Source of the DNA: an uncultured Actinomycetota bacterium
Lineage (GTDB): Bacteria > Actinomycetota > Actinomycetes > JAHEKZ01
Assembly (NCBI GenBank): GCA_963718235.1
Contig: CAVQYR010000002.1
Span: 525,454 to 589,453 of the forward strand
Reading direction: 5' to 3'
DNA: 64,000 nt
Numbering within the stretch: position 1 is the stretch's first letter; the number at the start of each line of letters is the position of its first letter. Made by a program: the position numbers and the translations under genes. The notes below the pieces were generated by a model. The model did no database searches. It worked only from the letters and a program-made list of their open reading frames with translations, and was not told where the DNA came from. This document shows, one piece after another, positions 1,726 through 21,251 of this stretch.

Positions 1726-3392
1726 AGTGGCGCCACGGGCCGGCCGTCGTCGGCGGCCGAGTGTCGGGCGGCCTCCATCACGGCCAGGACCCGCCGCGAC
1801 TGGGCGCCGGTGACGGTCATCGGCAGTCCGAGACGCACCCGGTCGGCAACCTCACGGTGGAAGGCGTAGGGCTCAGCGCTGGGCATGGCGAGCCGGGTGA
1901 CACTGCCATCGGCGGCGTACTGGTCGAGCGTGGGCGGTGAGTCCGCCGGCGCCAGGATGTCCTCGGTGAGGGTGCCGATGTCGCTGCGGGACACCACCTT
2001 CTCGGTACGCCACTGCCCGACGACCGCCCCGAGCGTGCCCAGCACGTACCAGCGCGGCTTGAGCGCAGCGGCCAGGTCGGAGTGGACGAACTCGGCCTCG
2101 GCGCCTCCGTCGAACCGGATGGTCACTCGAGAGTGGTCGGCGTTGGTGACGTCGTACCAGCGTCGCTTGTGGGTAGCCGCGGTGACGTAGTCGACCTCGG
2201 TGGGGACGAGGTCGAGGATCTGGTCGAGGACGTGCGACCCCCAGTCGTAGAAGGCGCCACCGGAGACCTCCTCGTCGGAGTGCCAGAGGTTGCAGGGGTG
2301 GCCGTACCCGCCGATGAAGGTCTCGATCTGGAACAGGTCGCCCAGGGCGCCGGACCGCACGAGTCGTCGGATCGCCAGATGGTCAGGGTCGTAGCGACGG
2401 TTCTGGTACACCACGGCCAGGAGGCCAGCCGCGTCGGCTTCGGCGAGGACCTCGTCGGCCTCACTCGTCCGGATCGCGAAGGGCTTCTCGACCACGACGT
2501 GCTTGCCCGCACGCAGTGCCTTCAACGCCCACGGTGCGTGAGTGCTCGGCGGGGTCGAGATCACCACGAGGTCGACGTCGTCGCGCTCGAGCAGCTCGTC
2601 GGCCGATCGGGTCGTGCTGACCCCCGGCGCCGCTGTCGCCGCAGCCGTCAGCCGGTCCGGGGAGGTGTCGCAGACCGCGGCCAGGCTCAGGCCGTGCACC
2701 GCGCGCACCGCGCGACTGTGCTCGTGTCCGATGGCGCCGTAGCCGAGCAGCCCGACACCAACCGTGGCCGCCTCGGGCACGCCGCACATGAGCTGGAGCA
2801 GCTGGGCGAGGGCACGGGTCGCACCTGCGCCGCCGACCGCCCCCGGTGACGTGCCGAGCGTCCACGCCGCCGTGGCCGTTGCCGGGCGCCAGGTCAGCAC
2901 CGGTTGTTCGACCAGTCCGATCCGCGCGGTGAGCAGCACCCGGACGTCGTCGGCGGACTTGTCGACCTGAACCAGGCGGTCGGTCACATGGTCGTGCTGG
3001 CCGACGTGGTCGTCCTCGTGGTGCTGGTGACCCGCCGGGTGCAGCGTGCCCGGAGCGTCGTGGCCGGCTCTGACCCGTACGTCGTGCACCGGCGTGGTGT
3101 CGCCGACGAGAAGCCCCGCCGCCTCACCCAGAACTCGGTCCGGGTCGGCCCGAGTGAGCGTTGGGCCGGCCAGGACGACCCTGAGGTCGGTGTCGGTGAG
3201 GGCGCTGACCAGAGCAGGGGAGAGCGCTCGGTCGGCCCACACGACCACGGCATCGGCCGCGCTCAGCTCGCGGTCCGAGCCCGGCGCGCCCACGTCGACC
3301 AGTCCGGACGACGTCAGGCGGTCGCGCAGGGCGGCCACCTCGGCAGCCAGCTCCGGGTGGGACAGGTCGACGACCCAGGCGATGCGCAGCAC
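1722..3392 (-). CDS. Gfo/Idh/MocA oxidoreductase with an N-terminal ThuA-like extension; start uncertain
   Basis: The C-terminal 350 aa have the Rossmann motif GVGLLGYGAIG and an EKP motif, VVVEKPF. Upstream lie about 200 aa of non-junk sequence (WVVDLSHPELAAEVAALRD...QPVLTWRPATATAAWTLGTSPG) that resembles a ThuA / class-I glutamine amidotransferase-like domain. The ORF as listed extends to 3812, but its first 140 aa are R/P-rich junk. I propose a GTG start near 3392. An alternative is two separate genes, with an ATG (MCGVPE) at 2789. Confidence 0.6.
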   Translation of the reverse strand: MLRIAWVVDLSHPELAAEVAALRDRLTSSGLVDVGAPGSDRELSAADAVVVWADRALSPALVSALTDTDLRVVLAGPTLTRADPDRVLGEAAGLLVGDTTPVHDVRVRAGHDAPGTLHPAGHQHHEDDHVGQHDHVTDRLVQVDKSADDVRVLLTARIGLVEQPVLTWRPATATAAWTLGTSPGAVGGAGATRALAQLLQLMCGVPEAATVGVGLLGYGAIGHEHSRAVRAVHGLSLAAVCDTSPDRLTAAATAAPGVSTTRSADELLERDDVDLVVISTPPSTHAPWALKALRAGKHVVVEKPFAIRTSEADEVLAEADAAGLLAVVYQNRRYDPDHLAIRRLVRSGALGDLFQIETFIGGYGHPCNLWHSDEEVSGGAFYDWGSHVLDQILDLVPTEVDYVTAATHKRRWYDVTNADHSRVTIRFDGGAEAEFVHSDLAAALKPRWYVLGTLGAVVGQWRTEKVVSRSDIGTLTEDILAPADSPPTLDQYAADGSVTRLAMPSAEPYAFHREVADRVRLGLPMTVTGAQSRRVLAVMEAARHSAADDGRPVAPL

Positions 3393-3571
3393 CTGGCGAC
3401 AGTAGAGGAATCTGCCGAGCGCTGCCGCCCAGCCCTCCTCGCACCCCTCGGGGCCGACCCGTTCTCGTACCCCGATACCGAAAGAAGGGCGCCGGCTCGG
3501 GCGCGCCGTGGCCCGGACGGTCGGCGGCCGCACCGCGCTCGAAGCTGGACCCGTCCCTATACTCCGGCGTC

Positions 3572-4198
3572 GTGCCCACCACGCCCGCGGCCCCCCGTCG
3601 GGGCCGGCCGCCCAGGCACAAGCGCGCCGACATCTTGGACGCGGCCTCCGAGGTGCTGGTCTTCCGCGGTTACGAGAGCACCCGGTACAGCGACGTCGCC
3701 GAGGCCAGTGGTGTCCCCGTCGGGAGCCTGCAGCACTACTTCCCGACGATCGAGGTCTTGCGACGCGATGCCCTGCGCCACAAGGTTCGGGCCGAGCTGA
3801 CCGCCCTGGCAACGGAGCTCGCTCAGATCGACGACCCGTGGGCGCGGATTCGTCACATCATCGTGTCCTCGGTGTCCCTGGAACCCGCGCGTCGCCGCGG
3901 TGGCTGGGTCCTGTGGCTCGAGTACTGGCGGGCGGCGGCCCACGACCCCGAGCTGGCCGACGACACCCACGAGGTGGACGCCGCCTGGCTGGACCTCGCG
4001 GCGCAGTGTGTCGACGACGGCGTCCGATCGGGGCTCTTCCGGCTCGACGGTACGCCACACGAGGCGGCGGTGGAGCTGCACGCCCTGCTCGACGGGCTCG
4101 GGGTGGGGCTGGCCGTGGAGCACCCGCCCGAACAGGCCGCCGAGGCGATCGCTCTGGTGGAGCGCGCCGCGCGGCGGATGCTGTTCTCCACGCGCTGA
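3572..4198 (+). CDS. TetR/AcrR family transcriptional regulator
   Basis: 208-aa ORF. The N-terminal HTH region is RGRPPRHKRADILDAASEVLVFRGYESTRYSDVAEASGVPVGSLQHYF. It lies divergent to the oxidoreductase pair and upstream of the amine oxidase. Confidence 0.9.
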   Translation: MPTTPAAPRRGRPPRHKRADILDAASEVLVFRGYESTRYSDVAEASGVPVGSLQHYFPTIEVLRRDALRHKVRAELTALATELAQIDDPWARIRHIIVSSVSLEPARRRGGWVLWLEYWRAAAHDPELADDTHEVDAAWLDLAAQCVDDGVRSGLFRLDGTPHEAAVELHALLDGLGVGLAVEHPPEQAAEAIALVERAARRMLFSTR

Positions 4199-4268
4199 CC
4201 GACGGCCGGTCACCCACCGTTGCGCCTGACGGGTGGTGGGGTCTTGACGGGGACGCCGCCCGGGGTCA

Positions 4269-4302
4269 TCATTCCTATACCCATATGGCGCTATGAGAAT
4301 GA
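4269..4302. promoter_or_regulatory. AT-rich imperfect palindrome (TetR-type operator candidate) upstream of the amine oxidase gene
   Basis: The site is TCATTCCTATACCCATATGGCGCTATGAGAATGA. The arms TCATTC and GAATGA flank a central CATATG. It lies 30 nt upstream of the SD of the amine oxidase gene and downstream of the TetR stop. It is AT-rich in a 70% GC genome. Confidence 0.4.
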
Positions 4303-4334
4303 CTCGGGTCGTTCCCACGAGAGGAGCATCAGCC

Positions 4335-5711
4335 ATGACGCTGAACCGTCGGGACTTCATCAAGGTGGCCGGGGCGGCCGCCGCGGTCGTTGCCTGCTCC
4401 CCGGCCACCCGGGCCGTGGCAGCGACCAGGCAGCGGGTGCTGGTGGTCGGCGCGGGCATGGCCGGAATGGCGGCGGCGCGACAGCTGGTCGACGCCGGAC
4501 ACACGGTGACGGTGCTCGAGGCGCGCAACCGCCTCGGCGGCCGGATCCACACGAGCAACGCGTGGGCCGACGCACCGATCGACCTCGGCGCCTCGTGGAT
4601 CCACGAGACGCAGGGCAACCCGCTCACCTCGCTGGCGAGCCAGGCGGGGGCGCGCACGGTCACCACCGACTACGCCAGCTTCGCCACCTACGACGCGAGC
4701 CTGGGCAAGATCACGACCGGCTCCGGTTCGGCTTACGCGTCCATGCAGGCCAAGTTCGACAGCGCCGTCAAGGCCGGCTACAACACCAACAAGGACACCG
4801 CGCTGCGTACGGCTCTGGAGAGCAGCCTCAAGCTGAGCACGCTGACCGAGCCGAACAAGCGGTTGGCCAACCACTTCATCGTGAGCCTGGCCGACGACGA
4901 GTACGCCGGCGACTCCGCCGAGCTGTCCAGCTGGTACTGGGACAGCATGGGCGGCTACTCGGGTCTCGACGCCGTTCTGCCCGACGGATACGTCGCGCTG
5001 GTGAACCACCTGGCCACCGGGATCAACGTCCAGCTGAACCGCACCGTCACGGCCATCTCCCACACGTCGACGGGCGTCACGGTGACCACGTCCGGCGGCA
5101 CCTTCACCGGCGACCGCGTGATCGTGACCGTACCGCTGGGTGTCCTCAAGAAGAACGCGATCACCTTCAGCCCCGCCCTGTCCTCCACCAAGACGACCGC
5201 GATCAGCAAGCTCGGGATGGGCACGGGGACCCTGAGCAAGGTGTTCCTGCGCTTCCCGAGCGTCTTCTGGGACAACGTCGACTGGATCGAGTACGTCGCG
5301 TCGACGGCCGACCGGGGCCGGTTCCACCAGTGGCTCAACGTCGCCCGGGTGTCCGGGGGCAAACCGATCCTGCTGGGCTTCCTCGGTGGGTTCTACGCCC
5401 AGTCGGCCGAGGCGATGACCGACCAGCAGATCGTCGACGCCGCCATGGGCCCCCTGCGCACGATGTACGGCGCGAGCATCCCCAACCCGGTCGCATGGCA
5501 GATCCCGCGATGGAGCACCGACCCGTTCTCCTACGGGTCGTACTCCTTCAACAAGCTGAACTCGACGCCGAGCATGCGCAACAACCTGGCGGCCGACGTC
5601 AGCAAGCGGGTCTTCTTCGCTGGTGAGGCCACCCACAAGACGCTGTTCGCCACGGTGCACGGCGCGTACCTGTCCGGACAGCGCGCGGCCACCGAGATCA
5701 TGAACGCCTGA
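4335..5711 (+). CDS. flavin-containing amine oxidase (polyamine/monoamine oxidase family), Tat-signal lipoprotein
   Basis: The GAGAGGAG Shine-Dalgarno (SD) sits 8 nt before the ATG at 4335. The N-terminus [21 protein letters not shown] has a twin-arginine motif and a VVAC lipobox. The FAD-binding fingerprint is [17 protein letters not shown]...[11 protein letters not shown]. The C-terminus reads VFFAGEAT. Confidence 0.85.
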
Positions 5712-5761
5712 GCGAGCCGAGAGGCGGGCTCCTTCGCCGCCCAGATGGCTACAGTGAGGCC

Positions 5762-6766
5762 GTGTCGGTCCGGTGGTCCCTGCTCGCCTCGACGGTCGCG
5801 CTCGCCGTGGTCTCGAGCGTCGCCGTGGTCGACGCACCGACAGCCAACAGTCGGGCGTTGCCGGCGGGTTCGACGCAGTCCACGCCGGGGTGGGCGCTGG
5901 ACCGGATCGACCAGCGACGTCTCCCGCTGAACGGCACCTACCGGTCCAGGGCGAACGGGTCGGGGGTGACGGCCTATGTGGTCGACTGCGGCGCGCAGGT
6001 CGGCAACCCCGCGTTCGGTGGCCGCGGCCGACGCGGCCCCAACCTCGCCGGGGGCACCTGGGGCGACTGCACCGACTCGTTCGCGGTCGGACATGCGACC
6101 TTCGTCGCCGGGATCATCGGGGGTGCCGTGACCGGCGTGGCGAAGGCTGTGCGTGTGGTGTCGGTGAGGGCGCTCAACGGTGGAGAGGGCGTCGGCGCCC
6201 CGCCGACTCGGGTCCAGGCGCAGCGGGTCGTCGACGCGATCGACTGGGTGATCAAGGACGCGGCCAGACACCCCGGTCCAGCCGTGGTGAACCTCTCGCT
6301 GGGATTCCCGGAGCGATTCATCGGTGTGAGCCGTGCGCTGCAACGGCTGGAGCGCGCTCACATCACGGCGGCCGTGGCGGCTGGAAACGAGTCCGGAGAC
6401 GCGTGCCAGCACACCCCTGCCCGGGTCCCCACCGCGCTCACCGTGGGCGCAGTGAACCGCCACGACCGGCGGTGGAGCGGATCGAACAGCGGGCCCTGCG
6501 TCGACCTCTTCGCGCCCGGGGTCGGCGTGCGCTCGGTCCTGCGCGGCGGTGGCGTGTTCACGTATCGCGGCTCGGGGGCGACGTCGTGGGCCACGCCGTA
6601 CGTGACCGGCGCCGTGGCCCTGTACCTGTCCACTCACCCCCGGGCGCACCCACCAGCAGTCCGTCGCTGGGTCCTGACCGGCTCGACAAGGGGACTGCTC
6701 AGCGGACTCCCGACCGGCACGCCCAACCGCCTGCTGTACGCGTTCGCCCCACTGCGCCGAGCCTGA
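5762..6766 (+). CDS. S8 family (subtilisin/proteinase K-like) secreted serine peptidase
   Basis: It has a signal peptide and a WALDRIDQR motif. The catalytic Asp, His and Ser contexts are VVDCG, GHATFVAGIIGG and GTSWATPYVTGAVAL. It starts with GTG. Confidence 0.85.
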   Translation: MSVRWSLLASTVALAVVSSVAVVDAPTANSRALPAGSTQSTPGWALDRIDQRRLPLNGTYRSRANGSGVTAYVVDCGAQVGNPAFGGRGRRGPNLAGGTWGDCTDSFAVGHATFVAGIIGGAVTGVAKAVRVVSVRALNGGEGVGAPPTRVQAQRVVDAIDWVIKDAARHPGPAVVNLSLGFPERFIGVSRALQRLERAHITAAVAAGNESGDACQHTPARVPTALTVGAVNRHDRRWSGSNSGPCVDLFAPGVGVRSVLRGGGVFTYRGSGATSWATPYVTGAVALYLSTHPRAHPPAVRRWVLTGSTRGLLSGLPTGTPNRLLYAFAPLRRA

Positions 6767-6805
6767 GCCCCACGCCGGCCGTGCTCCCGACCAGGGGCGG
6801 GACCG

Positions 6806-7273
6806 TCATTGCAGGGGGATCCCCGTGTCGTCGCCCTCGGCGCGTGCTCCGTAGATACGGCGCTGCGCCGCGTCGATGGCCACGTCGTTGATGCTCGCCT
6901 CACGACGGGACATGTAGCCCCGTTCGTCGAACTCCCAGTTCTCGTTGCCATAGGACCGGAACCACTGTCCGGCAGCGTCGTGCCACTCGTACTGGAAGCG
7001 CACGGCGATCCGGTTGTCGCTGAACGCCCATAGTTCCTTGCGCAGCACATAGTCGAGCTCGCGCTCCCACTTGCGCTGCAGGAACGACACGATCGCTGCG
7101 TGGCCCTGGAGGAACTCGTCGCGGTTGCGCCACTGCGAGTCGGGGCTGTACGCGCCGGCCACGCGCTCGGGGTCCCGGCTGTTCCAAGCGGTCTCAGCCA
7201 TCAACACCTTGGTACGTGCGGACTGCTCGTCGAACGGCGGCAGTGGGGCGCGGGGGGTGGGGGCGGTCGACAT
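6806..7273 (-). CDS. DUF1348 / NTF2-like (SnoaL-like) family protein
   Basis: 155-aa ORF. Its sequence ([10 protein letters not shown]...[28 protein letters not shown]...YGNENWEF) matches my recollection of the conserved actinobacterial DUF1348 proteins. Confidence 0.7.
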
Positions 7274-7456
7274 GCGGCCTCCATAGGTGGGGGAACGGCA
7301 GGGTCAATCTAGGCCTCACCAGCTGTTGCCCGCCTGCGTCCGATAGACCAGCTGCGCCACGACGCGCCGGACCCCTCGTCGCCTCCTGGGCGCCCTTTGC
7401 TGTGAAGATGGCGGGCAGCAGATGACGGCCTCACCGTTTGGCGACCAGGAGTGACG

Positions 7457-9883
7457 ATGTCGACCTCAGCGCACCAGTTGGCGTGGACCTCCGGCCGAAC
7501 CCGGGTCAGCCTGGTCGTGGGGCTGCTCGCCACCACGAGCGTCCTCCTCGGTGTGCCTCAGCTGGCAGGGGCCGCCGCGGCGGACCGAGCCGTCCCTGCT
7601 CCCACTCCGAGCTACCAGGTGACGATCGTGGCGCGCACCTGCGACTCGTTCGCCTCGATCATGGCCAACCGGGCCCGGAACAACATCCAGGAGAGCCTGC
7701 AGGACCTCGGCCCCGACACGCTCTACTCCAGTGGTCAGCCGGTGAGTCCCAGGGTCGAGGACGTCAACGCCACCACCCAGGTGGCCGGCTGCGACCCGCT
7801 GGCCGGGTGGAGGTTCCAGCTGGGCACGGGGATCGCCGGCAAGTCGGACTTCCTCAGCCAGGTCAGCAACCCGTACGCACCTCCGCCCGGACCGACCACT
7901 GCGTCGGTGCCCGAGCTGGATCCACAGGGTCAGCCAACCGGCCGCACCGTCCAGGGCGCGCGCACCATCACGTTGACCTCGGCCCAGGCCCAGCTCGCCC
8001 AGCAGTCGAGCCGGTTGTGGATCCAGGGCGGCGTGGTGGGAGACCCCCTGCTGGACAACCCGCCGTCCCCCTTCGACCCGCCGCAGGCGTTCGGCGCCCT
8101 GCGCTGCGCGGTCGACAACCTCAACGGCGACAACGTCGAGTGGATCGGCTTCCCGAGCGGGGCCACCCACGTGTTCTGCTACTACTTCGCAGTCAGCCCT
8201 CCGCCTGAGGCGGCGACCATCCGCGTCGTCAAGCAGCTTCCGGGCTCCGAGGCGCCGGTCAACCGCACCTTCGGGTTCGCCGGCAACGTCAGCTACGTGC
8301 CGGGGCCGACCGGAGACCCCAACGACAACCCCTTCGGTGTCCCCGTCAACGGCCGGACCGGGTCGGTCGACTTCGTCCGGGCTGCCGACACGTCGGCCCC
8401 ATGGACGTTGTACGAGCAGGAGGACCCCGACTGGGCGCTGACCAACGCAGACTGCCGGTCCCGAGACGGCACCAGCACGATCACGCCACCCGGAACGGTG
8501 CAACAGGGCCCGGCGGGGAGGTTCGCCGTCACCCTCGGCGCGGGCGACCTGGTCACGTGCACCTTCACCAACGTGCGCGACATCGCCGGCCTCGCGATCG
8601 AGAAGGTCACCGAGGAGGGCACGGGCACGTTCGACTTCCGGGCCAGCAGCCCGAGCGGTCTGAACACGGCCTCGGCGTCGGTCACCACTCTCCAGCCGGG
8701 AGACCCGGTCCGCGCGCTGGAGATCACCGGCGCCTCGGGCACCTTCACTGCCCAGGAGGACCTGCCCTCGGGCGTGGCCGCCGGCGCGTGGACGATCAGC
8801 CGGGTGTCGTGCAACGGCACCGACCTCTCACCGACTCCGGTCGTCGGCCAGCCAGCAAGCGGCACGATCGCCCCGGGGGCGAACGTCTTGTGCACCGTCT
8901 ACAACAGCCCGCAAGGGTCGATCACCGTCCGCAAGACCTCCGAGGGAGGCACTGGAACGTTCTCCTTCGTCATCGTCCCCCTGGGGGGCTTCCCCCTCGA
9001 CGGAACGGGCGGCAACGTCGGTCTGAGCGCGACGACGAACCAGCAGGGTGTGCGTGTCCCTGCAACGCCCACGGACGGGTCCAACACCGGCCTGCCCTTC
9101 CAGCGCTACGCCGTCGTCGAGCTCGCACCGCCCAGCGAGCCGAGCGGGACGTGGCGGCTCACCGAGGCCACGTGTGACGCGTCGGACAGCACGTCGGTGC
9201 GCTCGGCCGGCCTCATCGGTGCCGCCTTCACCCTCTCGCCGGCGGATCCGACAGTGACCTGCGACTTCACCGACGAGCTGGTGCCAGCCGCCGCGCTCCA
9301 GGTGGTGAAGACCGTGTCCGGCGACGCCTCGGCCCGAACGGGTGAGGTGCTGGTCTCGGTCCAGTGCAACGACGCGACGACGGCATCCCTGGTCGGACCT
9401 GCAGGGCGGCCCGGCCCGTTCTCGTTGCCTCAGCGCCTCGTCTTCACCGACTTCCTGTGGAACGCCCAGGACGAGCCGACGCTGTCGTGTCGCGTCCGGG
9501 AGGCCGAGACCGGAGTCGCCGACGGGGCGACCGTCGCCACCGAGTGGACGGTCGTGACCGACGGGGTCCCGGCTCCGCCGACGTCCGGCGAGTCGGTCCG
9601 GGTCGACCCGACACCGGGACAGGTGGTCACGGTGCGGGTCGAGAACACCTACCAGAGCGCCTCGGGGCCGACGCCGACACCGACCCCGTCGGGGACCGAC
9701 GGCGGTGGAACGGGCGGGGCCGCCGGCGGAGGGGCGGGCGGTCCCCTTCCGGTCACGGGCCTGTCCGGCGCGCTGGCCCTCACCCTCGGGGCCGGCCTGG
9801 TGCTGCTCGTGCTGGGCGGGATCGCGCTGATCGTGTCCTACGGTCGTGGCCGCCGGACGGCGGAGCGCCCTCAGTCTTCGTAA
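7457..9883 (+). CDS. LPXTG-anchored cell-surface protein with repeated Ig-like/SpaA-like domains
   Basis: An AGGAG SD sits 5 nt before the ATG at 7457. The protein has an N-terminal signal peptide. CTFTN/CTVYN/CDFTD-type motifs recur about every 110 aa. The C-terminus carries LPVTG, a hydrophobic helix and an RGRRT tail, which is a sortase sorting signal. Confidence 0.8.
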   Translation: MSTSAHQLAWTSGRTRVSLVVGLLATTSVLLGVPQLAGAAAADRAVPAPTPSYQVTIVARTCDSFASIMANRARNNIQESLQDLGPDTLYSSGQPVSPRVEDVNATTQVAGCDPLAGWRFQLGTGIAGKSDFLSQVSNPYAPPPGPTTASVPELDPQGQPTGRTVQGARTITLTSAQAQLAQQSSRLWIQGGVVGDPLLDNPPSPFDPPQAFGALRCAVDNLNGDNVEWIGFPSGATHVFCYYFAVSPPPEAATIRVVKQLPGSEAPVNRTFGFAGNVSYVPGPTGDPNDNPFGVPVNGRTGSVDFVRAADTSAPWTLYEQEDPDWALTNADCRSRDGTSTITPPGTVQQGPAGRFAVTLGAGDLVTCTFTNVRDIAGLAIEKVTEEGTGTFDFRASSPSGLNTASASVTTLQPGDPVRALEITGASGTFTAQEDLPSGVAAGAWTISRVSCNGTDLSPTPVVGQPASGTIAPGANVLCTVYNSPQGSITVRKTSEGGTGTFSFVIVPLGGFPLDGTGGNVGLSATTNQQGVRVPATPTDGSNTGLPFQRYAVVELAPPSEPSGTWRLTEATCDASDSTSVRSAGLIGAAFTLSPADPTVTCDFTDELVPAAALQVVKTVSGDASARTGEVLVSVQCNDATTASLVGPAGRPGPFSLPQRLVFTDFLWNAQDEPTLSCRVREAETGVADGATVATEWTVVTDGVPAPPTSGESVRVDPTPGQVVTVRVENTYQSASGPTPTPTPSGTDGGGTGGAAGGGAGGPLPVTGLSGALALTLGAGLVLLVLGGIALIVSYGRGRRTAERPQSS

Positions 9884-9953
9884 CCCGGTACCCCGAGGGG
9901 CTGGCGGTGCCGCGCGGGCGCGGCCATGCTGTCAGCGTCGAGAGGGGCTCCGG

Positions 9954-11843
9954 ATGGGTGTCGAGTCCGATCAGGTGACCGGTTCCGCGCCGACGAGCAC
10001 GCGTCCGGGTCCGACGCTGGACCCTCTCGTGATGACCCCGGAGGAGATGCGTCGGACCGGCTACGCCGTCGTGGACGCCATGGTGGGGTGGGCCGACCAG
10101 CCGGACCCGGTCATTCGACGGGCCGACCCCGAGTCCATGCAGGCATGCCTGCACACGGCGTGCCCCGAGGTCGGCGTCGGCATGGACGACGTCCTGGAGC
10201 GGCTGTGCCACGACGTGCTTCCCTTCGCGAGCAAGGTCGGTCACCCGGGCTACTTCGCCTACATCCCCGGCTCGACGACCTGGCCGTCGGCACTGGCGGA
10301 GTTCATGGCCAACGTCACCAACGTCTACTGCGGCTCGTGGATGGAGGCGGCCGGACCGAGCCAGCTGGAGCTCACGGTGCTCGACTGGTTCCGGGACTGG
10401 CTCGGGATGCCGCCGGAAAGCGACGGCGTCCTCGTGTCGGGCGGGTCGGCGTCCAACCTGACCGCGTTGGCTGCTGCCCGCGAGCTCCGGCTCGGTCCGA
10501 TGAGCAAGCACGCGGTCATCTACTGCGCCGACCAGGCGCACTCGTCGGTGGGGCGTGCGGCGCGGGTGCTCGGTTTCCGTCCCGACCAGGTGCACGTCAT
10601 ACCCTCCGACGACCGCTTTCGGCTGCGACCTGAGGCGTTGCGGGCGGCGATCGAGTTCGACCTGGCCGGTGGGCGTCAGCCGTTGGTCGTGTGCGCTGCG
10701 GCCGGGTCGACCAACACCGGAAGCGTCGACCCCATGCACGAGATCGCTGACCTGTGCGCCGAGCTGGGCGTGTGGATGCACGTCGACGCGGCCTACGGCG
10801 GCTTCGCCGCCCTGACCGAGCGTGGTGCAGCAGCACTGGACGGGATCGAGCGCGCCGACTCGGTCACGCTCGACCCGCACAAGTGGCTGTTCCAGCCAAT
10901 GGAGTGTGGTGCCTTGCTGGTCCGCGAGCACGGGGCACTGGAGAAGGCGTTCGGGGTCCTTCCGGACTACCTCGCCGATGCCGACGCCCACGGCACCGAG
11001 GTGAACTTCAGCGACCGCGGGCTCCAGCTGACCCGCAATGCGAGGGCGCTGAAGGTGTGGGCGTCCCTCTCGGCGTTCGGGGTGTCGGCGTTCCGCAGCG
11101 TCGTCGACCGGAGCCTCGACCTGGTCGGGGTAGCCCAGCAGTGCATCGAGTCGGACCCCGACCTCGAGCTGATGAACCCCGCAAGCCTGGGCATCGTGTG
11201 CTTCCGGCGCAGGGTGGACGGACTGAGCGAGGCCCAGACGGCGCGGGTGAACCTGTGGCTGGCGGGCGAGCTGGAGGCAACCGGTCGGGCGATGGTCTCC
11301 TCCACCCGTCTGCACGGTCGATTCGCCCTGCGGATGTGCGTGCTGAACCACCTCACCCAGGAGGAGGACGTCCGCTGGACCCTCGACTACCTCGCGCGCA
11401 CCCCGATCCCGTCCCGGCTCTTGGTCGACGACGTCGATGGTTCAGCCGGCTGGGCCGCGCTGCCCCTGCTGTCCCTCCTGACCGAGGAGGGAGTGGACTT
11501 CCTGGTGAACCACTCCTTCCGGCGTACGTTCTCGGCGGGGTCGACGATCGTGTCGCAGTGGGCCACCGACCGTGACTTCTACGTGGTGCTCGACGGCAAG
11601 GTCGCGGTGAGCGTGGACGGCGAGCTCGTGCGGACCCTCGAGCAGGGGGACTTCTTCGGCGAGATCGCCGCATCGGACTGGGGAAGCGGCTACGGCTACG
11701 TGCGGCTGGCCGACGTCCGGGCCGAGTCCGAGGCCGACCTGATGCTTGTACCTGCGGAGGCACTGGCCAAGCTGATGGGTTCCGAGCCCGCCTTCCGCGA
11801 ACGTGTCCTCACTGCTCGCTCCGACCGGCTCGCGCAGATGTGA
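9954..11843 (+). CDS. PLP-dependent group II decarboxylase fused to a C-terminal cyclic-nucleotide-binding (CAP_ED) domain
   Basis: A GAGAGGGG SD precedes the ATG at 9954. There is one continuous frame of about 630 aa. The decarboxylase part includes HPGYFAYIPGS and the PLP lysine context SVTLDPHKW. The C-terminal 120 aa (GSTIVSQWATDRDFYVVLDGKVAVSVDGELVRTLEQGDFFGEIA...) match the cNMP-binding fold. Confidence 0.8.
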   Translation: MGVESDQVTGSAPTSTRPGPTLDPLVMTPEEMRRTGYAVVDAMVGWADQPDPVIRRADPESMQACLHTACPEVGVGMDDVLERLCHDVLPFASKVGHPGYFAYIPGSTTWPSALAEFMANVTNVYCGSWMEAAGPSQLELTVLDWFRDWLGMPPESDGVLVSGGSASNLTALAAARELRLGPMSKHAVIYCADQAHSSVGRAARVLGFRPDQVHVIPSDDRFRLRPEALRAAIEFDLAGGRQPLVVCAAAGSTNTGSVDPMHEIADLCAELGVWMHVDAAYGGFAALTERGAAALDGIERADSVTLDPHKWLFQPMECGALLVREHGALEKAFGVLPDYLADADAHGTEVNFSDRGLQLTRNARALKVWASLSAFGVSAFRSVVDRSLDLVGVAQQCIESDPDLELMNPASLGIVCFRRRVDGLSEAQTARVNLWLAGELEATGRAMVSSTRLHGRFALRMCVLNHLTQEEDVRWTLDYLARTPIPSRLLVDDVDGSAGWAALPLLSLLTEEGVDFLVNHSFRRTFSAGSTIVSQWATDRDFYVVLDGKVAVSVDGELVRTLEQGDFFGEIAASDWGSGYGYVRLADVRAESEADLMLVPAEALAKLMGSEPAFRERVLTARSDRLAQM

Positions 11844-11874
11844 GGACCTGGAGCAACCAGGGGACGAGAGGCAC

Positions 11875-12519
11875 ATGAGATTCCGCGACCGACGGGACGC
11901 CGGGCGTCAGCTCGCGGCGTCCCTCGCCTGGGTCCGACCGGAGCATCCGGTCGTGCTCGGTCTCCTGCGCGGGGGCGTACCCGTCGCCTTCGAGGTGGCT
12001 CGAGGGCTCGGGGCTCCGCTGGACGTGGTGATCGTTCGGAAGGTCGGGGTGCCCGGCCAGCCGGAGCTGGCGATGGGTGCGGTCGGCGAGGAGGATGCGC
12101 GGGTCCGCAACGCGTCGGTGATCCACGACGCCGGCGTGACCGTGACCCAGCTGGAGGCGGCCGAACGTGAAGCGGAGGCGCAGGTGAGGATCCGCGCCGG
12201 AGCCGTGCGCCGAGTCAAGCCACGCATCCCGCTGAAGGGGCGCACGGTGGTCATCGTCGACGACGGGGTGGCCACGGGGTCGACGGCACGCGCGGCGTGC
12301 CAGGTGGTTCGGACCGAGGGGGCAGGGCGTGTCGTCCTCGCCGTGCCGGTCGCCCCCGCCGAGACGGTCGTTGCGCTTCGGGAGGTGGCCGACGAGGTGG
12401 TGTGTCTCGACGTGCCGAGTCCCTTCTACTCCGTCGGTCAGTTCTACGACGACTTCACCCAGGTCGAGGACGACGCCGTGATCGCCTGCTTGCGCGAGGT
12501 CGACCCGACCGAGGCGTAG
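11875..12519 (+). CDS. phosphoribosyltransferase family protein (COG1926-like)
   Basis: A GGACGAGAGG SD precedes the ATG at 11875. The N-terminus MRFRDRRDAGRQLA and the PRPP-binding motif VVIVDDGVATGSTARAA support the call. It lies 32 nt after the decarboxylase-CAP gene. Confidence 0.75.
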   Translation: MRFRDRRDAGRQLAASLAWVRPEHPVVLGLLRGGVPVAFEVARGLGAPLDVVIVRKVGVPGQPELAMGAVGEEDARVRNASVIHDAGVTVTQLEAAEREAEAQVRIRAGAVRRVKPRIPLKGRTVVIVDDGVATGSTARAACQVVRTEGAGRVVLAVPVAPAETVVALREVADEVVCLDVPSPFYSVGQFYDDFTQVEDDAVIACLREVDPTEA

Positions 12520-12533: not shown

Positions 12534-13130
12534 TCAGCGGGAGTCGAACCAGGCTGGGAATCCATGGAGGTCGTCCAGGATCACGTCGGGGCTCACCTCC
12601 TCCAGAGACTCGCGGCTCACTCCTCCGGTGAGGACCACCACCGAGACGGCATCGGCCGCGCGCGCGGCCGCCACGTCGGCCCAGTGGTCCCCGACGTACA
12701 CGTCGGCCTGCCACTCGCGCAGGGCGATCGCCTTGTCGACCCCCCACAGGTCCCCGACGAGGGCGTCGGTCGCCAGCCGGGACGCCGTCATCGTGACCTC
12801 GGCCAGTGGCTGGTGCTTCGCCGTGACCACCACGACTCGACCGCCGCTGGCCTGGACCGCAGCGATGGCCCGGCGCGCGCCGGGCATCGCGGTGGCCATG
12901 GCGGCACCGAACTTCGCCATGTGGACGCGGAACCGGCGAACGGCGTCATCGACGTCTTCGTCACCGAAGGCGTCGAGCAGTGCGTCGCGAACCGGAGGTC
13001 CGAGCTGCTGAACGATCGCGTCGGCGTCGATCGTGCGCCCGGTCTCGTCGGCCAGCGCGTCCAGACTGGCCCGGATGCCGGCGCGGGAGTCGACGAGGGT
13101 CATGTCCAGGTCGAACCCGACGGTCAACAC
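12534..13130 (-). CDS. HAD family hydrolase (phosphoglycolate-phosphatase-like)
   Basis: Motif I DxDxT (FDLDMTLVDS) is at the N-terminus, and the C-terminus has VYVGDHWADV. 198 aa. Confidence 0.8.
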   Translation of the reverse strand: MLTVGFDLDMTLVDSRAGIRASLDALADETGRTIDADAIVQQLGPPVRDALLDAFGDEDVDDAVRRFRVHMAKFGAAMATAMPGARRAIAAVQASGGRVVVVTAKHQPLAEVTMTASRLATDALVGDLWGVDKAIALREWQADVYVGDHWADVAAARAADAVSVVVLTGGVSRESLEEVSPDVILDDLHGFPAWFDSR

Positions 13131-13157
13131 AGCGCCAGCCTAATGAGCGGTCGTCGG

Positions 13158-13622
13158 CTACCGGGTCGACGGGGGAGCCGGGACGGCGCGACCGAGAGCC
13201 TGGCCGGACAGGCTCGTCGCGATGGAACGGGCCCAGCGCCGCACGTCCGCGTCCCCCTCGTCCTCCGTGGAGAACGTCGCATGGTCGCGGGCCCGCAGAC
13301 GCAGCATCGCCTGCACGGCCCCACGCACCGGAACGTCGGACAGCGCCTCGCCTGCGGGCACCGAGCTGAAGAGCCAGACCGGGCGCCGGAGCAGAGCCAC
13401 CGCGTGGCGACGGGCGAACCGGCGGGCGTCGTCGTGCCAGTGGGACGCGAACACCGCGCCACCCAGCACGACGGCGTCGTACCCGTCGACGAGGTGGATC
13501 TCGAGGGCAGGTGCGACGTCGACGACGAAGTGGTGGCGGCGCAGCTCGTCGGCGACGACCTCGGCGACGTGCCGCGTACCGCCGTTCGACGTGCCGTACG
13601 TCACCAGGACCCGATGGCTCAC
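13158..13622 (-). CDS. flavodoxin-like domain protein
   Basis: VLVTYGTSNGGTRHVAEVVADEL is a flavodoxin phosphate-binding loop. I take the internal GTG at about 13622, which has a GGGGAGG SD 6 nt upstream. The listed ORF extends to 13694. Confidence 0.7.
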   Translation of the reverse strand: MSHRVLVTYGTSNGGTRHVAEVVADELRRHHFVVDVAPALEIHLVDGYDAVVLGGAVFASHWHDDARRFARRHAVALLRRPVWLFSSVPAGEALSDVPVRGAVQAMLRLRARDHATFSTEDEGDADVRRWARSIATSLSGQALGRAVPAPPSTR

Positions 13623-13715
13623 CCGGCACCTCCCCTCGCTGACAACCGGATCTCTCGATGTCAGCACGCCCGCTGCGGCGGCGATACGGTCCAAAGACCC
13701 GAAGCGGGGCTCAGG

Positions 13716-15941
13716 TCACCCCGGGTCGGGGTCGAACCGACGGAGGCGAAGGCTGTTGGTGACCACGAAGACGCTGGAGAAGGCCATGGCGGCCCCCGCG
13801 ATCAGCGGGTTGAGCAGACCCGCGGCGGCCAGCGGGATCGCCGCCACGTTGTAGGCGAAGGCCCAGAACAGGTTGCCCTTGATCGTGGCCAGGACCCGCC
13901 GCGAGAGCTGGATGGCCTGCGGCACGGCCTGGAGGTCACCGCGGACGAGGGTCAGATCGCTGGCCTCGATCGCCACATCGGTCCCGGTACCCATCGAGAT
14001 CCCGAGGTCGGCCTGGGCGAGCCCGGCAGCGTCATTGACCCCGTCACCCACCATCGCCACGACCCGGCCCTGCTCCTGCAGCTCGCGGACGGCAGCGACC
14101 TTGCCTGCCGGGAGCACATCGGCGATGACGGTGTCGATCCCGACCTCCTGGGCGACACTGGCCGCGGCCCGGCGGTTGTCCCCGGTGAGCAGGACCGGGC
14201 GAAGCCCCATCTCCTTGAGCTGGGCCACCGCTGCGGCACTGGTCGGTTTCACCGTGTCGGCCACGACGAGCAGCCCGAGCACGACGCCGTCACCGCCGAC
14301 CGCGACGACGGTGCGTCCGGCCGCCTCGGCCCGCTCGTACTGCGCGGCCAGGGCGGCCGGCAGACCCAGCGCCCAGGACTCCCGAAGCCACGACGGGCGC
14401 CCCGCGGCGACGGCTCGTCCGGCAACGACCCCCTGCACGCCCAGGCCCGCGACGCCGGCGAAGTCGCTGACCTCGGGAAGTGGCCCTACCCGGTCCTCGG
14501 CGGCAGCAGCGATCGCTCGTCCGACCGGATGCTCCGAGGCATGCTCGACCGCACCCGCAAGGAGCAGCAGGTCATCCAGGCCCGTACCGTCAGCCGGGAC
14601 GACGTCTACGAGACGCATTCGGCCCTCGGTCACCGTTCCGGTCTTGTCGAGGACGACGGTGTCGACCCGCCGGGTCGACTCGAGCATCTCCGGTCCCTTG
14701 ATCAGGATCCCGAGCTGAGCGCCGCGACCGGTGCCGACCAGTAGTGCCGTCGGCGTGGCCAGGCCCAGGGCGCACGGGCACGCGATGATCAAGACCGCGA
14801 CGGCCGCGCTGAACGCCATCGTGGCGCTCTCGCCCTGGAGCAGCCAGAAGAGCAGCGTCGCCAGTGAGATCGCGATGACGATCGGGACGAACACCGCGGA
14901 CACCCGGTCCGCCAGACGCTGGACCGGGGCCTTGCCGCTCTGAGCCTGGGTCACCAGGCGAGCCATGGCCGCGAGCTGGGTGTCCTCACCCACCCGGGTC
15001 GCCTCGACAACCAGCCGCCCGCCGACGTTGACGCACCCGCCGACGACGGGTTCGGAAGGCCCGACCTCGACGGGCACGCTCTCGCCGGTGAGCATCGAGG
15101 CGTCGACCGCCGACGTGCCGTCGCGCACCACGCCGTCCGTGGCGATCTTCTCTCCCGGTCGGACCACGAAGCGGTTGCCCACGGCGAGCTGTTCGATGGG
15201 CACGCGCACCTCGTGCCCATCGCGCACCAGGGTGACGTCCTTCGCACCGAGGCGCAGCAACGCATGCAGGGCAGCACCGGACCGTCGCTTGGCACGGGCC
15301 TCGAGATAGCGACCGGTGAGGACGAAGACGGTCACCCCGGCGGCAACCTCGAGATAGAGCTCGTCGGTGCTGCCCCGGCTGGCATCGGTGTGGAACGACA
15401 TCGTCATGCCGGAGTCACCGGCGTCACCGAAGAACAACGAGTACAGCGACCAGCCGAACGCAGCAAGCACGCCCACGCTGATCAGGGTGTCCATCGTGGT
15501 GGTGCCGTGCCGCAGGTTGGTCCATGCAGCACGGTGAAAGGGCCAGGCACCCCACACCACGACAGGCGCGCTGAGGGTCAGGGCCAGCCACTGCCAGTTG
15601 CGGAACTGCAGGGCGGGAACCATCGACAAGACCACGACCGGGACGGTCAGGATCAGGCAGATCTGCAGGCGCTGCCGCAACGATCGGGTCGGGTCGTCCA
15701 GGTCGCTACCGGGAGCTTCGTCGGGCGAGGGGACGGGGAGCTGCGCGTGGTACCCGAGCGCCGCCACCGTGTCGAGAAGGTCGTCAGGGCTCACCGCGCT
15801 GTCGAAGGTCACGAACGCCTGCTCGGTGGCGTAGTTGACGTTTGCTGACACGCCGTCCATCCGGTTGAGCTTCTTCTCGATCCGGGAGGCGCACGACGCG
15901 CACGTCATCCCCGTGATCTCCAGCTCCACCGAGCGGCTCAT
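13716..15941 (-). CDS. copA: copper-translocating P1B-type ATPase
   Basis: 741-aa ORF. It has an N-terminal heavy-metal-associated (HMA) metal-binding domain (GMTCASCASRIE), a CPC motif (IACPCALGLATP), the DKTGT phosphorylation site and GDGVNDAAGLAQADLGISMG. Confidence 0.9.
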   Translation of the reverse strand: MSRSVELEITGMTCASCASRIEKKLNRMDGVSANVNYATEQAFVTFDSAVSPDDLLDTVAALGYHAQLPVPSPDEAPGSDLDDPTRSLRQRLQICLILTVPVVVLSMVPALQFRNWQWLALTLSAPVVVWGAWPFHRAAWTNLRHGTTTMDTLISVGVLAAFGWSLYSLFFGDAGDSGMTMSFHTDASRGSTDELYLEVAAGVTVFVLTGRYLEARAKRRSGAALHALLRLGAKDVTLVRDGHEVRVPIEQLAVGNRFVVRPGEKIATDGVVRDGTSAVDASMLTGESVPVEVGPSEPVVGGCVNVGGRLVVEATRVGEDTQLAAMARLVTQAQSGKAPVQRLADRVSAVFVPIVIAISLATLLFWLLQGESATMAFSAAVAVLIIACPCALGLATPTALLVGTGRGAQLGILIKGPEMLESTRRVDTVVLDKTGTVTEGRMRLVDVVPADGTGLDDLLLLAGAVEHASEHPVGRAIAAAAEDRVGPLPEVSDFAGVAGLGVQGVVAGRAVAAGRPSWLRESWALGLPAALAAQYERAEAAGRTVVAVGGDGVVLGLLVVADTVKPTSAAAVAQLKEMGLRPVLLTGDNRRAAASVAQEVGIDTVIADVLPAGKVAAVRELQEQGRVVAMVGDGVNDAAGLAQADLGISMGTGTDVAIEASDLTLVRGDLQAVPQAIQLSRRVLATIKGNLFWAFAYNVAAIPLAAAGLLNPLIAGAAMAFSSVFVVTNSLRLRRFDPDPG

Positions 15942-15943
15942 GC

Positions 15944-16168
15944 TCAGTCCGCCAGCTCGTACCCGGCCTCGTCGACGGCCGCCGCGACCGCGGCCCGATC
16001 GAGCGGGCTGGTGCTCACGACGACGACCCGCCCGGACTCGAGCTCCACGGTGACCGAGTCGACGTCACCGAGCGCGGTCAGCTCATCGGTCACCGCATGG
16101 ACGCAGTGACCACAGGTCATCCCGTTGACGTGGTACTCGGTGGACACCGTGGCGTGCTGATCGGACAT
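15944..16168 (-). CDS. copZ: copper chaperone, HMA domain
   Basis: A GAAGGAG SD precedes the internal ATG near 16168. The protein MSDQHATVSTEYHVNGMTCGHCVHAVTDEL... has an MxCxxC motif. Its stop is 2 nt from the copA start. Confidence 0.8.
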   Translation of the reverse strand: MSDQHATVSTEYHVNGMTCGHCVHAVTDELTALGDVDSVTVELESGRVVVVSTSPLDRAAVAAAVDEAGYELAD

Positions 16169-16205
16169 GTCGCTCCTTCGTCGAAGAGCGAGTGGACCTG
16201 AACCC

Positions 16206-16592
16206 TCAGGTGCCGCCGCTCGTGGGTGCCCAAGCACGAACGATGTCACGCATGGAGATGATTCCCACGACGTCGGCGTCCTGGATCACCACGAGGTGGC
16301 GGAAACCCCCTCGGCGCATCGTCTCAGCCGCCTCCTCCAGGGTCCACGAGGGGTCGGCGTACGCCGCCTCGTAGGTCAGGTGCTCACCGGACTTGGCCTG
16401 GTCGACGTCGAGGCCGGCGGCGATGGCCCGGACGACGTCACGCTCGGTCAGGATGCCCGGTCCGTGCGCGTCGGTGTCGATCACCACCACTGAGCCGACG
16501 CTTCGGTCGGCCATGAATCGACTGGCGTCCCGAAGGGAGTGGGTCGGCCCCACGCTGACGACCTGGTCGGACATCGTGTCGCGGACCAGCAC
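16206..16592 (-). CDS. CBS domain-containing protein
   Basis: 128-aa ORF. MLVRDTMSDQVVSV...VVVIDTD...HLVVIQDADVVGIISMRDIV are tandem CBS motifs. Confidence 0.8.
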   Translation of the reverse strand: MLVRDTMSDQVVSVGPTHSLRDASRFMADRSVGSVVVIDTDAHGPGILTERDVVRAIAAGLDVDQAKSGEHLTYEAAYADPSWTLEEAAETMRRGGFRHLVVIQDADVVGIISMRDIVRAWAPTSGGT

Positions 16593-16741
16593 GGCCCACC
16601 GCCTCTCGTTCGACCCGGCCCTCGGGTCGGCTGCGGGGCCCGCGAGTCACAGGTTCGTGGGCGGCGCCCTGCAGCCCTGAGCCTGTCCCGTCGGCGCGTC
16701 GGAGGCAAGGGGTTGCCCTCGACCGGTGGCCGGGGAGACTG

Positions 16742-18871: not shown

Positions 18872-19918
18872 CTACGGGTCGTCGTCGGTGGCTCCCCGGC
18901 TCGCGAGCAGTCGGCGCAGTGACGCCAACCGCTCCGGGTCGGCGTGGCCGTCGGCCACCCAGCGGTCCAATGCGCAGTGCTCGTCGTCGTGGCCGCACCC
19001 ACGCGGACACTCCTCGGTGCCCGGCTCGAGGTCGGGGAAGGCGTGCATGAAGCGGCCCAGCTCGACGTGGGCGAGCCCGAACGACCGGATCCCGGGTGTG
19101 TCGACCACCCAGCCGCCCTGGGGGAGCCGTAGGGCCACCGCCGAGGTCGAGGTGTGACGGCCCCGCCCGGTGACCACGTTCACGTGCCCGGTGCTTCGTG
19201 CGGCGTCCGGGACGAGTGCGTTGACCAGCGTCGACTTCCCCACCCCGGAGTGACCGATGAGCGCCGTCTCGTGGTCGCGCAGGAGTGCGGCGAGCTGGCT
19301 CAGGTCACCGCCGCGCCTCGTGACCACGAACGGGACTCCCAAGGAGTCGTAGGTTGCGCGCAGCGACTCGTCGCTGGCGAGGTCGCTCTTGGTGAGCACG
19401 AGCAGCGGTTGCAGCCCGCCGTCGAACGCGGCAACGAGTGCGCGGTCGATCAGGCGGGTCCGCGGCTCCGGGTCCGCCAGGGCGACGACGACGGCGAGCT
19501 GGTCGGCGTTGGCCACGATGATCCGCTCGTCGGTGTCGGTGTCGTCCGCACTGCGGTGAAGGACGCTCGTGCGGGCCCGCCGCCGCACGATCCGGGCGAG
19601 TGCGTCCGAGCCACCGGCGAGGTCACCGACCAGCGAGACACGGTCGCCCACGACGATTCCCTTGCGGCCCAGCTCGCGCGCCTTGACCGCGTAGAGCGCG
19701 CGGTCGCCCTCGTCGACGAGCTCGACGGTGAACCTTCCGCGGTCGACGGCGGTCACGAAGCCTTCGGCGGCGTCGTCGTGCCCCGGTCGTACCTTGCTGC
19801 GCGGGCGGGCCTTTCCTCGGCCGGGGCGCACCCGGACGTCGTCCTCGTCGAGCTCTCGGCCCCGTGGACCGGCCCGCCGGGCGCTCACGCGGCCGCCGAG
19901 CCGACCAGGCGATGCCAC
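18872..19918 (-). CDS. rsgA: ribosome small-subunit-dependent GTPase A
   Basis: The circularly permuted GTPase motifs are LLVLTKSDL and GHSGVGKSTLVNAL. The C-terminal Zn cluster is ECPRGCGHDDEHC. Confidence 0.85.
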   Translation of the reverse strand: MASPGRLGGRVSARRAGPRGRELDEDDVRVRPGRGKARPRSKVRPGHDDAAEGFVTAVDRGRFTVELVDEGDRALYAVKARELGRKGIVVGDRVSLVGDLAGGSDALARIVRRRARTSVLHRSADDTDTDERIIVANADQLAVVVALADPEPRTRLIDRALVAAFDGGLQPLLVLTKSDLASDESLRATYDSLGVPFVVTRRGGDLSQLAALLRDHETALIGHSGVGKSTLVNALVPDAARSTGHVNVVTGRGRHTSTSAVALRLPQGGWVVDTPGIRSFGLAHVELGRFMHAFPDLEPGTEECPRGCGHDDEHCALDRWVADGHADPERLASLRRLLASRGATDDDP

Positions 19919-21183: not shown

Positions 21184-21251
21184 TTCCTCAGACTACCGAG
21201 CGCCGGGCGAGCGGCCTTCGAGCCGACGCGACCCGCGTCTAGGGTGGGCGC

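Follow-up and report, generated by a model that had tools for sequence, protein, structure and literature searches.

A group-II PLP decarboxylase fused to a C-terminal cyclic-nucleotide-binding-type domain: a conserved bacterial architecture with a recurrent transporter neighbor

We analyzed a 64,000-nucleotide stretch of DNA from an uncultured Actinomycetota bacterium (assembly GCA_963718235.1, contig CAVQYR010000002.1, positions 525,454 to 589,453), hereafter the window, in which one gene encodes a group-II pyridoxal 5'-phosphate (PLP)-dependent decarboxylase joined to a C-terminal cyclic-nucleotide-binding (CNB) domain. The two-domain architecture recurs in several bacterial phyla, and many of the corresponding genes lie beside one encoding a major facilitator superfamily (MFS) transporter that carries a CNB domain of its own. 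On balance, these comparisons lead us to favor the view that the CNB domain would serve as a built-in allosteric sensor gating amine formation, in an enzyme that would belong to a make-and-export module.

The genomes of soil Actinobacteria are rich in genes for cyclases and cyclic-nucleotide receptors. To our knowledge, few enzymatic outputs of cyclic AMP (cAMP) have been described, the main example being the acetyltransferase Pat. Hundreds of copies of the fused protein are present in public databases under generic names such as “aminotransferase class V-fold PLP-dependent enzyme” or “aromatic-L-amino-acid decarboxylase”. We found no paper that mentions or examines the decarboxylase-CNB fusion or any cyclic-nucleotide-gated decarboxylase, in line with the original prediction, a model's reading of this DNA without database searches, which knew of no characterized example. 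The fusion is not listed in the 2007 survey of CNB domains either (Kannan et al., PMC2246266). What we report here is a candidate new type of CNB-regulated enzyme with a new output domain, an unusual invariant cassette and a conserved pair of sensor-bearing genes.

The fusion is a single protein conserved in several phyla

The open frame spans 9846..11843 on the forward strand and comprises 665 aa if counted from a GTG, which is the length given in the original prediction. This GTG falls within the upstream gene (7451..9883). The ATG at 9954 is preceded by the ribosome-binding-like GAGAGGGG and by the TAA of the upstream gene at 9881-9883, and alignments of homologs begin around residue 23; for these reasons the gene likely corresponds to 9954..11843 and encodes 629 aa (Table 1), so that the 665-codon frame exists as described and the protein is probably shorter than it suggests.

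Both domains scored above their Pfam thresholds, as expected from the original prediction: Pyridoxal_deC (PF00282) with 252.9 bits against a gathering score of 27, and cNMP_binding (PF00027, CAP_ED) at residues 524-609 with 46.1 bits against 27.5 (E 4.8e-12). The frame is uninterrupted, its G+C content at third codon positions (GC3) is 0.88 overall and codon-position G+C is uniform along it, so no frameshift is required to join the domains, a point on which the earlier reading was right.

In a search of 5.8 billion proteins, both PF00282 and PF00027 were present in 118 of the 120 best matches, which are 590-730 aa long and whose identity to the window protein ranges from 79% down to 50%. A genome scan restricted to one genome per species yielded at least 597 loci, 80 of which were kept, and 51 of these encode the fused form. 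Orthologs therefore keep the two domains in one protein rather than in unlinked genes. The hosts of the fused loci (at least 51 species-level genomes) belong to the Actinomycetota, Chloroflexota and Dormibacterota, the Actinomycetota being represented by Mycobacteriales, Streptosporangiaceae, Solirubrobacterales, Gaiellales and Acidimicrobiales; cultured carriers of the fusion family include Mycolicibacterium, Mycobacterium and Spongisporangium, with orthologs P0085 in Mycolicibacterium sp. 018/SC-01/001 and P0026 in Spongisporangium articulatum.

Unfused close relatives of approximately 480 aa also exist, mostly in Gemmatimonadota. A rough neighbor-joining tree built on the catalytic domain groups the fused proteins in one clade, with the unfused Gemmatimonadota relatives outside and a few unfused members nested within, a pattern consistent with a single fusion event and occasional loss. 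Comparison with the closest intact homolog (P0001) gave ratios of nonsynonymous to synonymous substitution rates (dN/dS) of 0.12 in the decarboxylase part, 0.24 in the CNB domain and 0.42 in the linker; these values are approximate, as synonymous sites are near saturation. Given its ratio of 0.24, the CNB domain is maintained by purifying selection.

The CNB domain carries an atypical phosphate-binding cassette

An AlphaFold2 (AF2) model of residues 485-629, with a mean predicted local distance difference test score (pLDDT) of 83, displays beta-barrel strands together with helices at model positions 27-36 and 117-143. Foldseek aligned this model with the CNB domains of PKA RI-alpha, PKG, MloK1 and HCN/CNG channels, with template modeling (TM) scores of 0.67-0.75 and E-values of about 1e-9. 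Profile, model and structural comparison hence agree on a CNB fold at residues 506-629, where the original prediction had placed a CAP_ED domain, and the stretch that it quoted, running from FYVVLDG to FFGEIA (FYVVLDGKVAVSVDGELVRTLEQGDFFGEIA), is present at residues 542-572. In the full-length model (pLDDT 80, predicted TM score 0.75), the low-confidence segments are residues 337-361 of the catalytic domain and a part of the cassette, residues 576-583, where pLDDT drops below 50.

In CNB domains, the Gly-Glu pair of the phosphate-binding cassette (PBC) contacts the ribose 2'-OH and the Arg contacts the phosphate. The equivalent Gly569, Glu570 and Arg584 are invariant in the family and kept in all 50 readable cassettes among the 51 fused genome loci. 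The segment between them contains a family-specific insertion of five residues, resulting in the pattern GE-x-AA-x-[DE]WG...R-x-A, in which [DE]-W-G...[FY] is nearly invariant across phyla. The spacing from Glu to Arg is 14 in GEIAASDWGSGYGYVRLA versus 9 in the Arg-containing consensus cassettes that we counted (PMC2246266, Table 1). The conservation of cassette residues that the original prediction proposed to check thus holds for the contact residues and fails for the canonical PBC length and the R-[ST]-A motif, neither of which is found in the window protein: the residue following the Arg is Leu in 79 of 121 sequences, Thr in 23 and Ser in 13. The lack of Ser/Thr at this position alone is not disqualifying, since PKA RI-alpha has R-A-A.

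Decarboxylase fusions and their fragments account for essentially all occurrences of this cassette. When the CNB domain was searched with phmmer against 1.84 billion representatives, 85 of the 149 best matches had the inserted cassette, nearly all of them fragments of the fused decarboxylase. The matches without it are generic multi-CNB, MFS, peptidase M50 or PrsW proteins, and no donor of the CNB domain was identified among the 149. Three proteins of approximately 128 aa (P0146, P0183 and P0223) begin at the CNB N-terminal helices and share the same GE-x-AA-x-DWG cassette; no further Pfam domain was found in any of them, and they may be stand-alone sensor domains or split genes. Being odd and yet invariant, the cassette offers a natural experiment on the diversification of CNB domains.

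The main rival to cyclic-nucleotide sensing is that this CNB-fold domain senses neither cAMP nor cyclic GMP (cGMP) and either responds to another ligand, for instance a nucleoside, a different nucleotide or, in a feedback loop, the amine product or the amino-acid substrate, or serves only in oligomerization or docking. The invariant [DE]-W-G and aromatic residues of the insertion, the lengthened Glu-to-Arg spacing and the poorly modeled residues 576-583 all fit such a departure. There are precedents as well, as CNB families with non-canonical cassettes sense other signals (PMC2246266) and, as reported in PMC10959531, the CNB domains of trypanosomatid PKA bind nucleosides and not cAMP. However, the invariance of the Gly-Glu pair and of the Arg would be unexpected had the phosphate site been abandoned, the usual MFS partner has a cassette of the canonical cyclic nucleoside monophosphate (cNMP) type, and class III cyclases recur beside the gene. 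We consider another ligand or a purely structural role unlikely, while ranking it ahead of all the other rival explanations.

A CNB-bearing MFS transporter is the recurrent neighbor

Gene neighborhoods were clustered with a GC3 filter against the spurious shadow ORFs of high-GC DNA. The recurrent neighbor of the fusion gene encodes an MFS transporter with a C-terminal CNB domain (MFS-CNB). In 24 of the 51 fused loci the two genes are directly adjacent, in most cases on one strand and 0-110 nt apart, and often in an operon. Among the 79 immediate neighbors of these loci, 28 match MFS_1 and 26 match cNMP_binding, whereas the next families reach 4. The transporter belongs to the efflux-type TIGR00900/EntS-like (DHA3) family; its PBC is of canonical length and its CNB domain matches both the model and the structures of Pat. 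In three loci, a DHA2-type efflux pump stands in place of the MFS-CNB gene. A further example of an MFS-CNB gene is located at 5928-7568 of L091.

MFS-CNB genes also lie beside three of eight non-syntenic close relatives of the window protein, namely P0004 (74% identity), P0009 (75%) and P0015 (67%). The transporter gene is absent from the 64-kb window, where the sole tblastn match was the CNB domain of the decarboxylase itself. The window locus is therefore an incomplete example of the decarboxylase-CNB plus MFS-CNB module, and the original prediction missed the conserved neighbor and chose another gene as the partner.

Class III cyclases are found nearby in a number of loci. A divergently oriented one sits 208 nt upstream of P0009 (locus L092), another 1.7 kb from P0007 (L085), and further ones within a few kb in L007, L009, L039 and others. 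In L092, positions 593-7709 hold a divergent class III cyclase (Guanylate_cyc plus AAA_16), the decarboxylase-CNB gene of a 75% identical relative and a convergent MFS-CNB gene, that is, a signal maker and both receivers together. As for the choice between adenylate and guanylate, the Lys of the cyclase motif EKF-x-GDA is present, but the second specificity residue is not assignable.

Agmatinase genes form another set of neighbors: 6 of the 51 fused loci have such a gene no more than 2.7 kb away, and three of the four tested genes pass the TIGR01230 cut-off. They are operonic with the decarboxylase-CNB and MFS-CNB genes in L008 (4899-10020), L030 (5143-9585) and L010 (2158-5110). This arrangement suggests that the products of at least some family members enter a guanidino-amine or polyamine route and are not aromatic amines.

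The downstream phosphoribosyltransferase is a lineage-specific neighbor

In the window, the gene following the fusion encodes a phosphoribosyltransferase (PRTase), as had been predicted (Pribosyltran, PF00156, E 4.7e-18, 65.4 bits against 26.3). Its product carries the phosphoribosyl pyrophosphate (PRPP)-binding loop VVIVDDGVATGST and matches over its full length TT1426 of Thermus thermophilus, a hypothetical protein and putative type I PRTase (PDB 1wd5, E 2.3e-48). The two genes, on the same strand, are separated by 31 nt (11844-11874), not the 32 nt first reported, with no terminator-like site between them, and are probably co-transcribed in the window.

The original prediction saw in this pair a two-enzyme, nucleotide- or amine-linked pathway, which could for example phosphoribosylate the amine. 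Besides the short intergenic distance, a homologous PRTase adjoins the fusion gene in two other fused loci: directly downstream on the same strand in L006, and upstream on the same strand in L018, where an MFS-CNB gene comes next. Three lineages exceed the chance expectation for a low-copy family by a rough estimate, not a computed test. Nevertheless, 49 of the 51 other fused loci have no PRTase at this place, the two cases make up 2 of the 79 immediate neighbors (and 2 of all 80 genome loci), and no PRTase lies beside eight relatives of 79, 75, 74, 74, 70, 67, 66 and 64% identity. In P0004, the slot held by the PRTase gene in the window is occupied by the MFS-CNB gene, 38 nt downstream. A further PRTase neighbor, in L090, is not independent evidence, since this contig shares 88% DNA identity and 15 kb of synteny with the window. 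The TT1426 family itself has no known function or substrate, nor does it regularly accompany the decarboxylase-CNB family. We thus consider a functional pairing improbable, and the PRTase a weakly supported partner whose position is a lineage-specific arrangement limited to the lineage of the window and two others.

The catalytic domain is that of a group-II amino-acid decarboxylase

Judged from its residues, the N-terminal part is a catalytically complete group-II PLP amino-acid decarboxylase. Lys310, His196, Asp278 and Tyr339 are each invariant in 121 of 121 sequences. The first of these is the lysine pointed out by the original prediction in SVTLDPHKW (residues 303-311). Lys310, in a D-x-H-K motif, is predicted to bind PLP, Asp278 to pair with the pyridine nitrogen and His196 to stack on the ring; we take these residues to be the equivalents of K303, D271 and H192 of DOPA decarboxylase (DDC), from HMMER alignments and the DDC numbering. 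Tyr339 matches Tyr332 of pig DDC and Tyr348 of Catharanthus roseus tryptophan decarboxylase (TDC), in the register of HMMER alignments to 6eew and 6eei. The low pLDDT at residues 337-361 of the full-length model is expected for a mobile catalytic loop.

The best PDB match by phmmer is the tryptophan decarboxylase of Ruminococcus gnavus (4obu, E 2e-78, 31% identity, residues 52-480), and Foldseek retrieved 4obv (E 4.5e-32). The other best solved relatives comprise a Pseudomonas DOPA decarboxylase, plant TDC and tyrosine decarboxylase (TyDC), the lysine decarboxylase DfoJ and a histidine decarboxylase (HDC). None of the NCBIfam equivalog cut-offs was reached (DABA decarboxylase 268 of 900 bits, PanP 143 of 606, MfnA 104 of 299, HDC 72 of 305), and the substrate is for this reason not assignable. 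The aromatic/glutamate type named in the original prediction thus stands for the aromatic character of the best solved relatives, at about 30% identity, and is otherwise approximate. Position 360 is Thr or Ser; here the bacterial relatives depart from the Gly/Ser rule of the plant enzymes.

The enzyme should be a true decarboxylase and not an aldehyde synthase, which would couple decarboxylation to oxidative deamination, because Tyr339 of the P-x-Y-L motif is invariant where the Arabidopsis aldehyde synthase has NPEFL. A conserved Phe352 does fall on the position of the catalytic tyrosine, but only in a mis-registered alignment of the loop. In the correct register, obtained by counting residues in the HMMER alignments, Tyr339 takes the place of the catalytic tyrosine (NPEYL in C. 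roseus TDC) in all 121 sequences, unlike the phenylacetaldehyde synthase of Arabidopsis, and His196 is likewise invariant. The aldehyde-synthase identity, very improbable on these grounds, was dropped.

A misleading database entry for a close relative

The weakest alternative, that the fusion is an assembly chimera or the product of a sequencing frameshift, draws on an 87% identical relative (P0025) called as 438 aa without a CNB domain, and can be practically dismissed: the contig of P0025 (L090) has many frame breaks and still encodes the CNB domain directly downstream in another frame, whereas in the window the frame runs without a break and GC3 is uniform, and the same architecture is found in hundreds of independent assemblies. 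The missing CNB domain is thus an assembly artifact in L090, not in the window, and the P0025 entry is misleading. At positions 8001-9886 of L090, the decarboxylase gene and several neighbors are split by frameshifts, as in an error-prone metagenome assembly.

Comparison with known systems

By analogy, the best functional precedent would be Pat (Mt-Pat/KATmt, Rv0998; PDB 4oll, 4onu, 4orf), an actinobacterial enzyme with a fused CNB switch, like the window protein. In Pat, binding of cAMP relieves autoinhibition. The two proteins are homologous in the CNB domain only: Pat has an N-terminal CNB domain with a canonical cassette and a GNAT acetyltransferase as output, whereas the window protein has a C-terminal CNB domain with an inserted cassette and a PLP decarboxylase as output.

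On the catalytic side, the aromatic L-amino-acid decarboxylases (R. gnavus 4obu/4obv, Pseudomonas 7xin, plant TDC/TyDC and pig DDC, 1js3) share the fold, the PLP lysine, the stacking histidine, the aspartate and the loop tyrosine. They match residues 25-480 with E-values from 2e-78 to 4e-56 and 27-33% identity, a level too low for a transfer of substrate specificity. In contrast to the window protein, they have no CNB domain or nucleotide-sensing extension.

Two other group-II PLP decarboxylases are gated by a signal-responsive C-terminal appendage, as proposed here. Plant glutamate decarboxylase (GAD) has a calmodulin-binding autoinhibitory C-terminal tail and E. coli GadB a pH-dependent C-terminal plug. 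Both appendages are short peptides that respond to Ca2+/calmodulin or pH, whereas the window protein has a folded receptor-type domain of 125 residues.

Finally, the MloK1, HCN and CNG channels have a C-terminal CNB domain whose signal travels back through N-terminal helices or a linker, as would be needed in the window protein, and their CNB structures are among the best matches of its model (4muv, TM 0.75; 2q0a, TM 0.74). As membrane transport proteins with a C-terminal CNB domain they also parallel the MFS-CNB partner. They differ from the decarboxylase-CNB protein by the ion-channel pore as output and by their canonical cassette.

Proposed mechanism

Under the interpretation that we favor, a cyclic nucleotide, most likely cAMP from a class III cyclase, would bind the beta-barrel of the CNB domain via the Gly-Glu and Arg of the cassette. 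The CNB domain being the last domain of the protein, coupling would have to run backwards and could not follow the route from the C-helix to a downstream domain. The conformational change would instead pass through the N-terminal helices of the CNB domain and the linker, or through a docking surface, to reach the decarboxylase dimer and its mobile catalytic loop and turn amine formation on or off, relief of autoinhibition being the more likely direction. Where a CNB-bearing MFS transporter is encoded alongside, one second messenger would control both synthesis and export of the amine. As for the substrate, the best sequence and structure matches point to an aromatic amino acid, possibly tryptophan, and the agmatinase neighbors to a basic or guanidino compound with a polyamine output in some lineages. 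In this scheme, cNMP binding, allosteric gating and product export are what we infer from sequence.

Several observations weigh against this interpretation. The direction of regulation is unreadable from sequences. Binding of a cyclic nucleotide is not assured either, as the cassette is non-canonical in its insertion, in the Leu that mostly follows the Arg and in its low-confidence model. Half of the fused loci, including that of the window, are without a transporter neighbor, and those with a cyclase neighbor are a minority. The hints at the substrate also conflict, homology indicating an aromatic compound and the agmatinase neighbors a guanidino or basic one.

With less confidence, and short of even odds in our estimation, we suggest that the enzyme may be the first PLP amino-acid decarboxylase gated directly by a second messenger, forming with the MFS-CNB transporter and sometimes a cyclase a self-contained circuit from cyclase through cNMP to amine synthesis and export. 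The output of such a circuit could be a biogenic aromatic amine, or agmatine/putrescine where an agmatinase is in the operon, and the inserted cassette could represent a new subtype of CNB domain, distinct in the ligand that it prefers or in its coupling surface. If this were true, cAMP would be tied to amine or polyamine production at the post-translational level, and the paired sensor-bearing exporter would exemplify the coordinated control of metabolite synthesis and export. As the decarboxylase-CNB family is large, present in several phyla and in cultured strains, it is accessible to standard binding and enzyme assays.

Features of the locus and other genes in the window

The coordinates of the fusion gene, its parts and the following gene are given in Table 1. 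Scans for Rfam families, tRNAs, promoters and terminators returned no matches. Exact-sequence look-ups retrieved no entry for the fusion protein, taken from either start, but did retrieve the PRTase.

Table 1. Positions in the window of the decarboxylase-CNB gene, its predicted parts and the downstream PRTase gene
Feature	Position (nt)	Strand	Basis
Decarboxylase-CNB fusion gene, 629 aa (likely start)	9954..11843	+	ORF; TGA stop 11841-11843; both Pfam domains; 79% identical full-length homolog P0001
Pyridoxal_deC catalytic region, residues 59-418	10128..11207	+	Pfam E 5.2e-75
Whole fold-type-I decarboxylase body, to about residue 480	ends at 11393	+	PDB phmmer 4obu, residues 52-480; Foldseek 4obv
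Lys310 codon, predicted PLP Schiff-base lysine in SVTLDPHKW	10881..10883	+	Invariant, 121/121
Tyr339 codon in P-D-Y-L, predicted catalytic-loop tyrosine	10968..10970	+	Register from HMMER alignments to 6eew, 6eei
Variable linker, residues 481-505	11394..11468	+	Poorly conserved columns; coil in model; dN/dS 0.42 vs P0001
C-terminal CNB domain, residues 506-629	11469..11840	+	Pfam; AF2 domain model; Foldseek; dN/dS 0.24
Atypical phosphate-binding cassette GEIAASDWGSGYGYVRLA, residues 569-586	11658..11711	+	Gly-Glu and Arg kept; 5-residue insertion
Spacer, 31 nt, containing GGGGACGAGAGG before the next ATG	11844..11874	+	No terminator-like site
TT1426-like type I phosphoribosyltransferase, 214 aa	11875..12519	+	Pfam Pribosyltran; PDB 1wd5; PRPP loop VVIVDDGVATGST

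Upstream of the fusion, 7451-9883(+) encodes an 810-aa surface protein with SpaA-type prealbumin folds (SpaA_4 three times, DUF5979), which stops 70 nt before the start of the decarboxylase. The product has the look of a sortase substrate, its C-terminus consisting of LPVTG, a hydrophobic segment and a basic tail. A flavin amine oxidase with a twin-arginine translocation (TAT) signal (4248-5711(+), Amino_oxidase E 1.6e-79, TAT_signal) is encoded 4.2 kb upstream. It was considered as an amine-degrading partner and rejected as coincidental, tblastn having found it in the syntenic L090 and in no other fetched locus.

Downstream, the block 12534-16646(-) encodes a HAD hydrolase, a flavodoxin_5 protein, a large P-type ATPase, a small copper-chaperone-like protein and a CBS-pair protein, the names of the ATPase and the chaperone having been read from ORF translations and not tested with hidden Markov models. 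Together with the TT1426-like PRTase gene, this block, which is wholly syntenic in L090, resembles a stress or metal-homeostasis island. The HAD, flavodoxin, SpaA, CopA, CopZ and DUF1348 neighbors of the window were found in none of the 80 genome loci. Further away, approximately 8 kb downstream, are an EPSP-synthase-family gene (19885-21192(-)) and a gene for an SOS-response-associated peptidase, SRAP (21243-22037(+)), for which no link to the fusion was found. The segment 40001-46000 has a G+C content of 0.64-0.67, compared with about 0.71 elsewhere in the window, and may have been horizontally acquired.

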